A DNA stretch of 25,315 bases from Candidatus Aenigmatarchaeota archaeon. Lineage in GTDB: Archaea > Aenigmatarchaeota > Aenigmatarchaeia > CG10238-14 > SCSR01. The position numbers and the translations under genes are program-made. Shown one piece after another: positions 20,587 through 25,315 of this stretch (position 1 is its first letter; each line of letters begins with the position of its first letter). The notes beneath the pieces are model-generated. The model did not search any database. It had not been told where the DNA came from and saw only the letters and a program-made list of their open reading frames with translations. The stretch is taken from contig JAWCSL010000011.1 of assembly GCA_039090665.1 (NCBI GenBank), positions 1-25,315 of the forward strand, written 5' to 3'.

Positions 20587-20670
20587 ATTGTTCAAAAGCA
20601 AAAATAATTTTTATATCTTTGATGAAATAAAATAAATACACTGTGTAATTTGAAAACAAAAGTGAGAAAC

Positions 20671-21021
20671 ATGAACAAACAAGAAATTATCCTTCCTTTG
20701 AAAGAAAGTTTGGGGTCAAAAAAAGAATTGGCTTCAATTTTCCTAAATTTCGATATAATAACAATCAGGATCTTACAAAAGTTTTACTTTAACAAAGATT
20801 TTCCAAATGATGTTAATTCTTATTATATTCAACAACTTCTTTCTGAGCTAAAAAGTGAAGGACTAGAAATAAATTTAGAAACTTTGAGAAAAAGATTGGA
20901 AAATTTAGTGAAATTGAATTTGATTGAAAAAGTTGAAACATATCCAAGAATATATATGCCTGTGAGAGATGTAGAAAAAATAAGAAGTTTTTTGATAAAA
21001 GTTAAAGAACTATTTTTATGA
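20671..21021 (+). CDS. Winged-helix DNA-binding protein
   Basis: YIQQLLSELK...INLETLRKRLENLVKLNLIEKVETYPRIY (HTH + wing); ATG 20671. Confidence 0.72.
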   Translation: MNKQEIILPLKESLGSKKELASIFLNFDIITIRILQKFYFNKDFPNDVNSYYIQQLLSELKSEGLEINLETLRKRLENLVKLNLIEKVETYPRIYMPVRDVEKIRSFLIKVKELFL

Positions 21022-21337: not shown

Positions 21338-21571
21338 ATGCCTCGAAAACCTTTTGGTAAGTTTTTTGAAGTAGCTCTTTTAAGTTGTTTGGATCCCGAA
21401 ATTCCTAAAACATCTGAAGCTATAAGAAGAGCTTTAGCTGAAAAACTAGATAGACCAGGACTTTCTTGGCATACTGTGAACAAATATCTTTGTTTTCTTC
21501 GTGATGCAAAAAAAGTAGAGGAAATTCGTATAGGTAAAGTCACAACTTACAAGTTAAGAAAACAAATTTAA
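21338..21571 (+). CDS. Small winged-helix protein (77 aa)
   Basis: PKTSEAIRRAL...LSWHTVNKYLCFLRDAKKVEEIRIGKVTTY. Confidence 0.8.
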   Translation: MPRKPFGKFFEVALLSCLDPEIPKTSEAIRRALAEKLDRPGLSWHTVNKYLCFLRDAKKVEEIRIGKVTTYKLRKQI

Positions 21572-21852: not shown

Positions 21853-21870
21853 TAATTTTCTTTGATTTTT

Positions 21871-23013
21871 ATGAATCGAGAAAAAATTTTAGAAATTTTC
21901 ACAAAAAATAATTTGTTACTAGATCCAAAGGCTTTAGAGTTTTTTATTCAAAATTCAAGCCAAGTGGAAAGTTTTTTGGAAAAAGTTAAAAAACTTGAGA
22001 GACAGCCTGTTATAATCACTCTTGATTTTGTCAAATCTTTAGAAAAATCTTATGAAATAGAGGAAATCAAAAAAGATGGAGCAAAGAAAACAACTTTATC
22101 AATTGAAGATCTTTCAAACTTTTTGGTAGAAAGATATGAAAAAATTAAGTCATTTTTTTCCTATAGATTGGATGTTGTTAATTTGATTTCAATAAACAAA
22201 ATAAATGAAAAAACAAAAAAATTTTCCCTTATAGTTATGGTTAGGGAGATTGATAGAGAAAACAAAATTGCTTTTGTTGAAGATCTAACTGGTGAAATAT
22301 CTGTACGTGTTCTGAATGATTTAATTGATTTTTTGGTTCAAGATGAGGTTGTTGGACTTTTTTGTGAGAAAAAAGATGAAGAAATTCAAGTTACAAATGT
22401 TTTCTGGCCGGATATACCTTTGAAAAGAACAATAGGAAAGCTAGAAGAGGATATTCTTTGCTTGTTTGTTTCAGAAGTTGCTTTTGAAGAAAATTATGAA
22501 GAAATTCTCAAAGAGATAAGCAAACTGAATTTTAAATTTTTGTTTATTTTTTTGTTTTTGAACAAAATCCTTGAAGAAAAACTTAAAGTGTTTAAAGAAA
22601 AAATACCACCAAACTCTAAACTTGTTTTGATAAGCAATGCGAAACAAAACTTTGATGATATTTTGTGTTTTTCAAGTCCAGCTTTTTTAGTTTTAGATAA
22701 AAAAATTGTATTTTTGCTAGTTGACGGAAAAATTTTTTCAAACTACAAAAATCTTGGAAAAGATTGTGTAGAGATAATGTTAAATTTACTTAAAAAAAGA
22801 CATTTGAACCCAATCTTTAAAATTGAAAACTTGAGCTTAGAAGACCGCTATTTGGTAGACCCAATTCCAGACATATTTGTTTCAGCAAATTTCGGTAATT
22901 CTTCTTTAATCAATTATAAAGGAACTACAATCATTTCTTGTGGATCTTCAGAAAAGTTGTTTTGGATTGTGAATCTTAAATCACGAGAAAATTTAAAAAT
23001 CAGTTTAACATAA
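21871..23013 (+). CDS. Inactivated homolog of DNA polymerase D small subunit DP1 (B-subunit-like)
   Basis: DP1-like N-terminal helix (EIFTKNNLLLDPKAL), OB fold (ERYEKI, VMVREI, EDLTG, DEVVG, WPDIP), LLKKRHLNP, PDIF, YKGT. Metal ligands are absent: SDIH is replaced by SEVA and GHVH by ANFG. Confidence 0.85.
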   Translation: MNREKILEIFTKNNLLLDPKALEFFIQNSSQVESFLEKVKKLERQPVIITLDFVKSLEKSYEIEEIKKDGAKKTTLSIEDLSNFLVERYEKIKSFFSYRLDVVNLISINKINEKTKKFSLIVMVREIDRENKIAFVEDLTGEISVRVLNDLIDFLVQDEVVGLFCEKKDEEIQVTNVFWPDIPLKRTIGKLEEDILCLFVSEVAFEENYEEILKEISKLNFKFLFIFLFLNKILEEKLKVFKEKIPPNSKLVLISNAKQNFDDILCFSSPAFLVLDKKIVFLLVDGKIFSNYKNLGKDCVEIMLNLLKKRHLNPIFKIENLSLEDRYLVDPIPDIFVSANFGNSSLINYKGTTIISCGSSEKLFWIVNLKSRENLKISLT

Positions 23014-23021
23014 GAATAAAC

Positions 23022-25315
23022 ATGGAAGTAAATTTTCAGCTTTTAGATGTTGATTATATTTTTCTAGAAAATCGTCCTATTATTAGGCTTATTGGAAAAA
23101 CAGAAGAAGGAAAAACTGTTTGTGCATTTTACGATGGTTTTTACCCTTATTTTTATGTTCTTCCAAAAAGGGATATGGAAGATAAAGTAATTGAAGAATT
23201 AAAGAAACATTTTAATGGAGATGTTAAAAACATAGAAAAAGTAGAAAGATTTTTGCCGATTGGTTTTCAAGAAAAAAAGAAAGAAATGTTAAAAATAACA
23301 TTAAAAGATCCATCTAAAACAGCAAATGTAAGAGAACATTTAAGAAAACAAGATTTTGTTGAAGATGTTTTTGAGGCAGATATTCTTTTCAAATACAGAT
23401 TTATGGCAGACTTCTCGCTTTTTGGAATGAATTGGTACAAAGTATATGGTACACCTATCCACACGCAGAATGTGAGAGCCGATCAAATAATCAAAATGGA
23501 AAAAATTGAGCCACTAGAAAAAATAGAAAATGCACCACTTAAGTACTTGGCTTTAGATATTGAAGTTGTTTCGAAAGGTTTGGTAGATCCTCAAGAAAAT
23601 CCAATAGCGATAATAAGTATGGCTTTTTTCCCAGCTTTTAATGGAAAAAATACAATTGTTTTAGTTGCAAAGAATAACATGAGAAGAATTGATAAAGATG
23701 TGTTAACTTTTAGCAGTGAAAAAGAAATGCTTGAAAAATTTTTAGAAATTGTTGAAAGATTTGATCCTGATGTTATTGTTGGTTATAACATTAACGATTT
23801 TGACATACCTTATATAAACGAAAGACTTAAAATCAATAAGTTGAGAAGAACATTAGGAAGATGTAATGAAAAACCACTTTCTTCAAGAAAGTTAGCTGAA
23901 AACAGATATAAGAACTCTATTTTTGGAAGAGTGATAGTAGATCCATATTGGATGATAAAAGACATGGCAAGTAGGGGTTTTTTCACAGGGCTCAAGAGAT
24001 TTGGTTTAGGAGATGTTTCTAAATATCTTTTAGGTGAAGATAAAATAGAATTTTCTCATGCTGATATGCCCCTTGCTTGGAACGGAAGTGAAGAAGATAT
24101 GAAAAGATTTATTGATTATGCGAGGAAAGATTCAGAACTTGTTTTAAGACTGCTTCTAGAAAAACAGTTTTTAGATAAATATATAGGAATTTCAAAAGTT
24201 TCAGGTTTACTTTTACAAGATTCTCTGGATACTGGAGAAGCTGGTAAAGTAGAAAATTTACTCTTAAGGGAATTCAATAAAGATGGGTTTGTTCTTCCTT
24301 GTAAGCCAACTGAAAAAGAAATTGCAAGAAGAAAAGCCGAAAGAGATGTTAAAGGGTTTAAAGGGGCTTTCGTCTTAGATCCGGAAGTTGGTTTACATAC
24401 AAATTGTGTAGTTTATCTAGATTTTGCATCAATGTATCCATCTATTTTTATTTCTTATAACATTTGTCCAACAACTCTTTTGATAGAAAAAAGAGATGAC
24501 ATAGAAGCAATAACAACACCTTTTGGTACTTCTTTTGTACCCCCACATGTAAGAAAAGGAATAATACCAAGAACACTTGAAAGGCTAATAAAAGAAAGGA
24601 ATATAATCAAGGCTCAAATGAAAAATGAAAAAAATGTGGAAAAGAAAAGGGCTTTAGATGCTTATCAAGAGGGTTTGAAAAGAATAGCGAATGCTTCTTA
24701 TGGCTACACAGGATTTCTTTTAGGCAGGATTTATGTTTTGAATATAGCAAATGCAATAACAAGTTGTGGCAGATATTATATTCAAGAAACAAAGAGATTA
24801 GTTGAAACAAACACAAAATATAAGGTGATTTATGGAGATACAGACTCTGTTATGATAAAAACGGATACACAAGATATTGATAAAGCGATAGAAATTGGCA
24901 ATCAAATTGCAAATTTCTTAAATGAAAAATTCGAAGGTAAGCTTAAAATTAAAGTAGAAAATATATTTAAAACACTTTTAATTTTGACCAAAAAAAGATA
25001 TGCTGGTTGGAGTTTTGAAAAAGTCGATTCTGAGTACAAAGATGAAATTGTGATGAAAGGAATAGAAACAGTTCGTAGAGATTGGTGTGATTTGGTTAGT
25101 GAAACACAAGAAGCAGTTTTAAACATTTTACTTAAAGAACAAAATCCGAGAAAAGCTTTCAACTATTTTAAGGAAGTAGTTCAAAAACTACAAGCTGAAC
25201 AAATTCCATTAGAGAAGCTAGTCATAATAAAAGGGATTTCAAAAAGACCAGAAGAATATAAAGGAGTACAACCTCATATTGAGCTTGTGAAAAAAATGAA
25301 GAAAAGAGGAGAAAC
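23022..25315 (+). CDS. polB: Family B DNA polymerase with Pol delta-like motifs; 3' end outside window (not in ORF track)
   Basis: Open frame from ATG 23022: ExoI LDIE (23556), ExoII GYNINDFD, ExoIII YARKD, motif A DFASMYPS (24420), motif B KRIANASYG, motif C YGDTDS (24831), KKRYAG, KGIETVRRDWC. Confidence 0.97.
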   Translation, partial: MEVNFQLLDVDYIFLENRPIIRLIGKTEEGKTVCAFYDGFYPYFYVLPKRDMEDKVIEELKKHFNGDVKNIEKVERFLPIGFQEKKKEMLKITLKDPSKTANVREHLRKQDFVEDVFEADILFKYRFMADFSLFGMNWYKVYGTPIHTQNVRADQIIKMEKIEPLEKIENAPLKYLALDIEVVSKGLVDPQENPIAIISMAFFPAFNGKNTIVLVAKNNMRRIDKDVLTFSSEKEMLEKFLEIVERFDPDVIVGYNINDFDIPYINERLKINKLRRTLGRCNEKPLSSRKLAENRYKNSIFGRVIVDPYWMIKDMASRGFFTGLKRFGLGDVSKYLLGEDKIEFSHADMPLAWNGSEEDMKRFIDYARKDSELVLRLLLEKQFLDKYIGISKVSGLLLQDSLDTGEAGKVENLLLREFNKDGFVLPCKPTEKEIARRKAERDVKGFKGAFVLDPEVGLHTNCVVYLDFASMYPSIFISYNICPTTLLIEKRDDIEAITTPFGTSFVPPHVRKGIIPRTLERLIKERNIIKAQMKNEKNVEKKRALDAYQEGLKRIANASYGYTGFLLGRIYVLNIANAITSCGRYYIQETKRLVETNTKYKVIYGDTDSVMIKTDTQDIDKAIEIGNQIANFLNEKFEGKLKIKVENIFKTLLILTKKRYAGWSFEKVDSEYKDEIVMKGIETVRRDWCDLVSETQEAVLNILLKEQNPRKAFNYFKEVVQKLQAEQIPLEKLVIIKGISKRPEEYKGVQPHIELVKKMKKRGE

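Follow-up and report, generated by a model that had tools for sequence, protein, structure and literature searches.

Two adjacent genes at the end of contig JAWCSL010000011.1 of Candidatus Aenigmatarchaeota archaeon raise the question of whether archaea with very small genomes possess a two-subunit DNA polymerase of eukaryotic style. The window, i.e. the whole stretch of 25,315 bases analysed here, is the entire contig C3 of an Aenigmatarchaeota genome of 620,606 bases (15 contigs, 90.57% complete), and it carries dp1-like, encoding a homologue of DP1, the small subunit of the archaeal polymerase PolD, followed by polB, encoding a family-B catalytic subunit (PolB). A reading made from the letters of the contig (hereafter the sequence-only reading) had proposed that this pair encodes a eukaryote-style two-subunit polymerase. 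In this study, that proposal is supported by the homology and fold of both proteins, the loss of the DP1 metal-binding motifs, the lack of a detectable DP2 (the PolD large subunit), the linkage of the two genes, and the homology of the cysteine-bearing C-terminal domain (CTD) of PolB orthologues to the C-terminus of DP2. The two genes thus very probably encode the subunits of the Aenigmatarchaeota PolB-DP2CTD/dead-DP1 DNA polymerase, and the pair is one more member of a published system rather than a new one.

Homology and fold of the DP1-like protein

The open frame of dp1-like extends from 21862 to 23013 on the forward strand; the start used by its relatives corresponds to the ATG at 21871, and the TAA stop occupies 23011-23013. 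The NCBIfam model of the PolD small subunit (NF003118) matches residues 2-204 of the 380-amino acid (aa) protein over profile positions 4-235 (E 2.1e-25, 89.6 bits), and the DP1 chain 6knb_A of the PDB matches it in two stretches (E 8.8e-8), the second of which pairs LLKKRHLNP and IPDIF with DP1 segments. The AlphaFold2 model computed from 21 members of the family (mean pLDDT 89.7, pTM 0.81) begins with a helical domain, continues with a beta-barrel (residues 117-178) and then has an alpha/beta sandwich that starts at residue 195; it is thus predicted to have the succession of OB fold and calcineurin-like phosphoesterase fold found in the family of DP1 and eukaryotic B-subunits. When this model was compared with the PDB using Foldseek, the top matches were DP1 chains of P. 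abyssi (E 2.8e-20 to 3.7e-19, TM 0.64-0.69), and next came human POLD2, POLE2 and POLA2 together with their yeast counterparts (E about 1e-17 to 1e-10). Conservation within the family is found in blocks outside the active site, namely VEDxTGE, LLKKRxLNP, IPDI and NYKGTTI.

Loss of the nuclease motifs

Calcineurin-like phosphoesterases bind metal through five motifs, DxH, GD, GNH(D/E), H and GHxH, whose names and roles are used here as in that superfamily. As an active reference for the alignment we used the motif-complete DP1 at locus L050, a contig of 3,058 bases (C64) of the relative G031 in which the DP1 gene lies directly upstream of a DP2 gene; its motifs read SDIHVG, GDLVDG, GNHDA, HGH and GHIH. 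At the five aligned sites the DP1-like protein of the window reads SEVAF, LNK, NAQNF, VDGK and SANFG, leaving none of the metal ligands. The protein therefore does not qualify as an active DP1 and is to be grouped with the B-subunits of the inactivated type.

The loss is graded across relatives. SDxH, GD and GHxH are retained in L029, L031 and L033, and part of these in L030, L032 and L034, whereas GNH is retained in none of the 13 DP1-like rows of the motif alignment and all five motifs have gone in its four genus members (the window, L025, L026 and L028). In the more distant L038-L040 and L042 the DP1-like protein is only 314-324 aa long, the central part of the phosphoesterase domain being deleted.

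Such decay could be taken to mean that dp1-like is a functionless relic of PolD, as all catalytic motifs are lost, the mean column identity of the DP1-like protein is 39% against 62% for PolB, and some relatives carry the central deletions. However, every genome examined has an uninterrupted frame, none of the matches containing a stop; the fold is predicted confidently, the blocks outside the active site are conserved, and the gene is retained in 196 of 201 very small genomes of the phylum (see below), which makes a mere relic barely credible.

PolB and its C-terminal zinc module

The protein encoded downstream matches the Pfam families PF00136 (DNA_pol_B, E 4.8e-100) and PF03104 (exonuclease, E 1.5e-33), and its exonuclease and polymerase motifs, seven of which were located (Table 1), are all intact. 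Up to this point the findings agree with the sequence-only reading, whose coordinates and lengths are correct; it had given the DP1-like protein as 380 aa long, placed its stop 8 nucleotides (nt) before a PolB, recognised its DP1 homology, and described its metal motifs as gone and those of PolB as intact.

The gene is cut by the contig end; by comparison with an orthologue of 901 aa (88% identity), it lacks about 137 codons, among them those for a Cys4 CTD. A tblastn search of the assembly with the tail of the orthologue matched nothing but the end of the window itself and the thumb region of a second PolB. From the 53 relatives with a match, 20 loci of the window's order were fetched, together with a class-level sample of 20 loci, one from each of 20 other families. 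A full-length PolB orthologue is present in all 20 order loci (892-914 aa, 48-88% identical over 764 residues), and every one of them ends in four invariant cysteines (C862, C865, C878 and C881 in the numbering of the L025 protein) that form one zinc module of about 45 aa with the consensus CxKCNxxYRRxPLxGKCxxCGGE. Among the other-family loci, a Cys4 motif, often in the form CxxC...CxC, was found in 14 of the 14 PolB C-termini present.

The C-terminal part of the PolB profile (A2) matches the C-terminus of DP2 in three of the five genomes searched of f12, a family that retains PolD (E 5e-8 to 3e-7), and the alignment of the two tails has CxxCN..YRRxPLxGKCxxC in common. After the zinc module, DP2 adds about 45 residues and a PCNA-interacting peptide (PIP) box of its own, and PolB lacks both. 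A model of the last 110 residues of PolB reached a pLDDT of 70.8 overall and 75-88 over the zinc module; Foldseek returned nothing for it at E <= 0.001, and its top four matches were DP2 chains of P. abyssi with a weak E value (0.01). The C-terminal module of the PolB orthologues is homologous to the C-terminus of DP2, where its counterpart is the last zinc module. A nearly invariant PIP-like motif, G-x-Q-x-x-[LI]-x-x-h-h, lies internally, between the thumb and the zinc module, and aligns with the C-terminal PIP box of canonical PolBs; this resemblance is suggestive.

One irregular case was observed at locus L080 (contig C4 of G105), where polB lies about 2 kb from dp1-like. The PolB there matches the profile only up to position 604, at YGDTDS, and unrelated sequence then runs to the edge of the fetched region, possibly representing an intein or another insertion at motif C.

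Lack of a detectable DP2, and presence of a second PolB

In the window's own genome, no DP2 was found with the Pfam models PF03833 and PF24846, and the DP1 model detected the window gene as the single DP1-like gene. Searches were extended to 60 relatives and to an even phylum sample of 201 genomes. A DP1-like gene was found in 53/60 relatives with a single-protein query and in 196/201 phylum genomes with a profile (A1), and DP2 in only 1/60 (G031) and 9/201, the latter being all eight sampled members of family f12 plus G031. G031, the only relative of the window's own family with DP2, also has the DP1-like/PolB pair, on a contig of that genome numbered C11, and its L050 contig may be mis-binned or may reflect a true coexistence of both systems.

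The own genome contains two proteins matching PF00136, the PolB of the window and an 824-aa PolB on contig C11 (locus L004, 331-2805, forward strand), which has intact exonuclease and polymerase domains, no cysteine tail, and a C-terminal PIP-like QKKILSYFDKR. Family f12 provides the comparison for both. In the five genomes searched, the f12 DP1 frames have the canonical length, at 460-523 aa, and retain GHLH; the PolB frames, complete in four genomes and cut by the contig start in the fifth, are 762-783 aa long, and the f12 PolBs end at profile position 833-837 with a QxxLxxF box. They are 35-38% identical to the C11 PolB (416-488 bits) and 28-31% identical to the cysteine-tailed PolBs (208-286 bits). 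On these sequence scores, the C11 PolB and the single PolB seen in f12 are orthologues, and since the f12 enzyme stands nearer to it, the cysteine-tailed PolB would be a distinct paralogue or an acquisition, found where DP2 is missing. The other route, in which the zinc module was fused onto the resident canonical PolB, is disfavoured for the same reason.

The second PolB also brings in an alternative, namely that the pair does form a complex and this complex is a specialised or accessory polymerase (for repair or the lagging strand, or as the remnant of a mobile element), the C11 PolB being the main replicase. The intact domains and PIP-like box of the C11 enzyme and its orthology to the f12 PolB speak for this, as does the mobile-element origin suggested for group B6 PolBs in the main text of Kazlauskas et al. 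(PMC7544198); the G+C content of contig C3 (0.309) is the lowest among the 15 contigs, the others ranging from 0.321 to 0.357. On the other hand, no mobile-element genes were seen in the window, and the pair is located amid core housekeeping genes (FKBP, FtsZ, Spt5, L11, L1, L10, fibrillarin, Nop5, a Hel308-type helicase, Kae1, Toprim proteins and Hjc), so that it appears chromosomal and outside any evident mobile element. In addition, DP1-like in 196/201 genomes combined with DP2 missing from 192/201 is the pattern expected for the replacement of an essential PolD. We thus regard a specialised or accessory role as rather unlikely.

Linkage of dp1-like and polB

In all 20 order loci, polB follows dp1-like immediately and in the same orientation, with a gap of 7-9 nt in 12 of them and of 7-70 nt across the whole set, in line with the adjacency noted in the sequence-only reading. 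This tight operon throughout the order makes cognate pairs easy to choose for co-expression. Among the 20 other-family loci, the two genes are directly adjacent in the same order in ten, adjacent with polB first in one, and separated by about 2 kb, in the same orientation, in another.

The less regular arrangement outside the order bears on a further alternative, in which the DP1-like protein acts alone or has a different partner, such as primase, the canonical PolB, RPA or an undetected DP2, and its adjacency to polB is inherited gene order. The genes are not co-oriented neighbours in 8/20 other-family loci, and DP1 within PolD is able to contact other parts of the replisome, as in PDB 9f29, where PolD is bound to the winged-helix domain of Rpa2. 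However, the module carried by PolB is the very one by which DP2 binds DP1 in PolD, it is invariant in the 20/20 order loci and the 14/14 other C-termini, no DP2 was detected, and the main text of PMC12680538 (2025, Nat Ecol Evol) reports AlphaFold3 and yeast two-hybrid evidence that an Aenigmatarchaeota DP1 binds the CTD-bearing PolB and not canonical PolBs. This alternative is accordingly very improbable.

We therefore return to the two-subunit PolB/DP1-like enzyme, for which the following arrangement is proposed. The catalytic subunit would be a PolB of group B6-aenigma1 with its own 3'-5' proofreading domain, and its C-terminus, as seen in full-length orthologues, would end in a single Cys4 module that stems from the last zinc module of DP2. 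With every metal ligand lost, the DP1-like protein would act only as a structural or adaptor B-subunit, like POLD2, POLE2 and POLA2. DP2 would have been lost in the lineage, and the DP1 scaffold would now dock on PolB via the transplanted zinc module. We infer that this particular pair of proteins bind each other; their genes would be co-transcribed, and co-translated across the 8-nt gap, and the complex would either be the main replicase or share that role with the canonical PIP-tailed PolB of C11.

Several observations weigh against this proposal. The C-terminus of PolB is absent from the window and, according to the tblastn search, from the rest of the assembly, and its zinc module is thus deduced from orthologues that are 78-88% identical. 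With the genome 90.6% complete, there is a small chance that a DP2 lies on DNA missing from the assembly, and the genome does encode the second, canonical PolB with a C-terminal PIP box. In four of the 20 other-family loci the two genes are convergent and 2-4 kb apart, and in four others no polB was found within the fetched range, which reached just ~1.2 kb upstream. The NF003118 score stands against a curated full-length cut-off of 445 bits, and Pfam gave no meaningful match in the DP1-like protein at E up to 1, only a spurious FAM186A-B_C (E 0.099); with no Pfam family and NCBIfam scores under the cut-offs, such proteins are likely missed by routine annotation. Finally, the two-hybrid result described in the main text of PMC12680538 concerns another Aenigmatarchaeota representative.

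Comparison with known systems

The main text of Kazlauskas et al. (2020, NAR; PMC7544198) states that some group B6 PolBs, mostly from Aenigmarchaeota, have C-terminal Cys motifs, that the B6-aenigma1 type has one such motif, most similar to a DP2 zinc motif, and that most Aenigmarchaeota lack DP2; an inactive DP1 is described there as well. It goes on to propose that DP2 was replaced by the B6 PolB and that eukaryotic B-subunits may derive from such a group. The main text of PMC12680538 describes the CTD of the Aenigmatarchaeota PolB as a 'degenerate DP2CTD' and attributes the 'B6-aenigma2' sequences to contamination from Baldrarchaeia. The window pair resembles B6-aenigma1/PolB-DP2CTD in its phylum, in the single Cys4 motif of its orthologues that is like the DP2 zinc motif, in the inactive DP1, in the lack of DP2 and in the presence of a second canonical PolB, and differs from it in nothing essential.

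Full-text literature searches found no further papers on the pair. The main texts of PMC7544198 and PMC12680538, figures and supplements being outside this comparison, contain no operon, adjacency or synteny of the two genes and no PIP motif in this PolB. The linkage counts, the graded decay of the phosphoesterase, the contrast with f12 and the internal PIP-like motif are thus possible additions to these main texts, the f12 contrast being partly foreshadowed by the word 'most' in the statement on DP2 in PMC7544198.

The eukaryotic polymerases Pol delta, alpha and epsilon share with the window pair a family-B catalytic subunit with a Cys-rich CTD and a nuclease-dead B-subunit of DP1 type with OB and phosphoesterase folds. 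In contrast to these enzymes, no POLD3- or POLD4-type subunits were identified here, the B-subunit is shorter (380 aa), and matches to the archaeal DP1 fold rank higher. The CTD of Pol delta is composed of CysA (zinc) and CysB (Fe-S) with a helical bundle, whereas a single Cys4 module of ~45 aa is found in the archaeal PolB. The description 'Pol delta-like' in the sequence-only reading thus holds in part: among PDB sequences the full-length orthologue scores best against the catalytic subunit p125 of human Pol delta (E 6e-110), ahead of the PolBs of Thermococcales (E 2e-100), and the main text of PMC7544198 places group B6 in a Delta-like clade, but there is one Cys4 module and not two. By its sequence, PolB would work like the catalytic subunit of Pol delta but is not a member of it, given the single-module CTD. 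The same reading had looked to a cysteine metal-binding CTD, which is borne out in the full-length PolBs of 20/20 relatives but could not be recovered for the window itself, and it had asked for a check of the genome for separate active DP1 and DP2 genes, neither of which the model searches found. The conditions it had named as refuting all turned out in its favour. It had also advised a look at the literature for this gene pair, where the system is already in print (PMC7544198 and PMC12680538, in their main texts); its biology is right, but it overrated the novelty of the pair.

Compared with the archaeal PolD of P. abyssi (PDB 6t8h, 5ihe), the small subunit is homologous with the same three-domain layout, and the last zinc module of DP2 has its aligned counterpart in the PolB module. 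The differences are that no DP2 core was found here, that the nuclease site of DP1 is destroyed, with polymerase and proofreading located in PolB, and that the helical tail and C-terminal PIP box that follow the zinc module in DP2 are missing from PolB. The nearest parallel outside the phylum is PolB3-DP2CTD with DP1 in Baldrarchaeia (Asgard), which, according to the main text of PMC12680538, likewise combines the loss of DP2, the retention of DP1, a PolB-DP2CTD fusion and a two-hybrid interaction; by that account the Baldrarchaeia CTD is full length and eukaryote-like, whereas the Aenigmatarchaeota CTD is shorter, 'degenerate' and predicted to adopt a different fold.

Neighbouring genes

Two small winged-helix genes precede dp1-like (Table 1). 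Proteins of the 85-aa type are characterised by an MKRGRPS N-terminus, an SWNTVQKYL helix and an LPHSK wing, with a mean column identity of 64%, and in 16/20 order loci the gene immediately before dp1-like is of this type or a more distant paralogue, compared with 0/20 loci of other families. The Pfam TBPIP/Hop2 winged helix was detected in 10 of 13 members (best E 1.3e-5), no match was obtained against PDB sequences (best E 0.21), and the proteins it resembles are winged-helix regulators of a generic kind (FUR, PadR and BlaI among them). A role as a POLD3-like third subunit was considered and has been demoted to a low-probability lead in view of the regulator-like matches and the absence of the gene from the position upstream of dp1-like in the other families; the protein resembles a generic regulator, and it could, with low probability, be an accessory subunit of the polymerase, as a lineage-specific third subunit rather than a regulator.

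Further upstream on the same strand, 1.3 kb before dp1-like, is a calcineurin-like metallophosphoesterase of 224 aa with intact motifs (DIHND, GDFSD, GNWD, HAPP and HIHE; Pfam Metallophos E 4e-18), kept in the neighbourhood of dp1-like in 18/20 order loci. A 123-aa open reading frame (ORF) belonging to no Pfam family lies between it and the winged-helix genes and is kept in 15/20. Elsewhere in the window, a stand-alone 201-aa protein resembling RNase_H_2 and PolB exonucleases (PF13482 E 3e-25; PF03104 E 8e-7) represents a separate gene for a DEDD-type 3'-5' exonuclease, and two overlapping ORFs with Toprim domains may be a DnaG-type primase gene broken by a frameshift, or two genes.

Table 1. 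Positions of the genes, domains and motifs discussed in the text, numbered from the first base of the window
Feature	Position	Strand	Remarks
dp1-like gene, 380 aa, nuclease-dead DP1/B-subunit homologue	21871..23013, stop included	+	ORF, NCBIfam, PDB, AlphaFold2, Foldseek
N-terminal helical domain of DP1-like, residues 1-60	21871..22050	+	AlphaFold2 secondary structure; helices 3-12, 19-27, 29-40, 51-58
OB-fold region of DP1-like, residues 117-178	22219..22404	+	most conserved columns of the family: E137, D138, T140, G141
Degenerate calcineurin-like phosphoesterase domain of DP1-like, residues 195-378	22453..23004	+	alignment, PDB match
Motif I equivalent SEVAF	22471-22485	+	alignment to L050 DP1
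Motif II equivalent FLFLNK	22549-22566	+	alignment to L050 DP1
Motif III equivalent ISNAKQNF	22630-22653	+	alignment to L050 DP1
Motif IV equivalent LLVDGK	22714-22731	+	alignment to L050 DP1
Scaffold motif LLKKRHLNP	22786-22812	+	retained in DP1-like, as is IPDIF
Motif V equivalent SANFGN	within 22864-22899	+	alignment to L050 DP1
Intergenic spacer, 8 nt, GAATAAAC	23014..23021	+	between dp1-like stop and polB start
polB, first 764 codons	23022..25313	+	ATG at 23022; 3' end cut by contig end
Exo I (DIE) of PolB	23547-23567	+	motif search
Exo II (NxxxFD) of PolB	23784-23804	+	motif search
Exo III (YxxxD) of PolB	24117-24137	+	motif search
Motif A (DFASMYPS) of PolB	24414-24443	+	motif search
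Motif B (KxxxNASYG) of PolB	24678-24707	+	motif search
Motif C (YGDTDS) of PolB	24831-24848	+	motif search
KKRY motif of PolB	24990-25007	+	motif search
Winged-helix gene, 85 aa	21595..21852	+	ends 18 nt before dp1-like; neighbour conserved in the order; context, not an established part of the enzyme
Second small winged-helix gene, 77 aa, distant paralogue of the 85-aa one	21338-21571	+	just upstream of dp1-like
123-aa ORF	20650-21021	+	
Calcineurin-like metallophosphoesterase, 224 aa	19912-20586	+	
RNase_H_2/PolB-exonuclease-like protein, 201 aa	7387-7992	+	
Toprim-domain ORF, 173 aa	17649-18170	-	overlaps the 295-aa ORF
Toprim-domain ORF, 295 aa	16931-17818	-	overlaps the 173-aa ORF

Implications

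The system to which the window pair belongs bears on the origin of eukaryotic replicative polymerases, in that an archaeal PolB would here have taken over the docking module of DP2 together with a nuclease-dead DP1, giving the architecture of Pol alpha, delta and epsilon. This point was printed in 2020 and the subunit contact was tested in 2025, and the window thus adds just one genome to it. A bolder suggestion, which we put forward as unlikely, is that Aenigmatarchaeota hold, within one class, successive stages of a switch from PolD to a eukaryote-style PolB/B-subunit enzyme. One stage would be represented by f12, with an active-looking DP1, DP2 and one canonical PIP-tailed PolB; another by all other sampled families, lacking DP2 and having a second PolB in which the DP2 zinc module follows the now-internal PIP-like GxQxxLxxhh; and the phosphoesterase of DP1 would have decayed stepwise, from the loss of only GNH through the loss of all five motifs to the central deletion.

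As a family of the same class that keeps PolD, f12 is usable as an internal comparison. If the suggested switch is true, the natural deletion series of the DP1-like protein would mark out the smallest working B-subunit, and members that have kept four of the five motifs might have residual metal binding or nuclease activity; the graded decay of the phosphoesterase could guide the design of minimal B-subunits.

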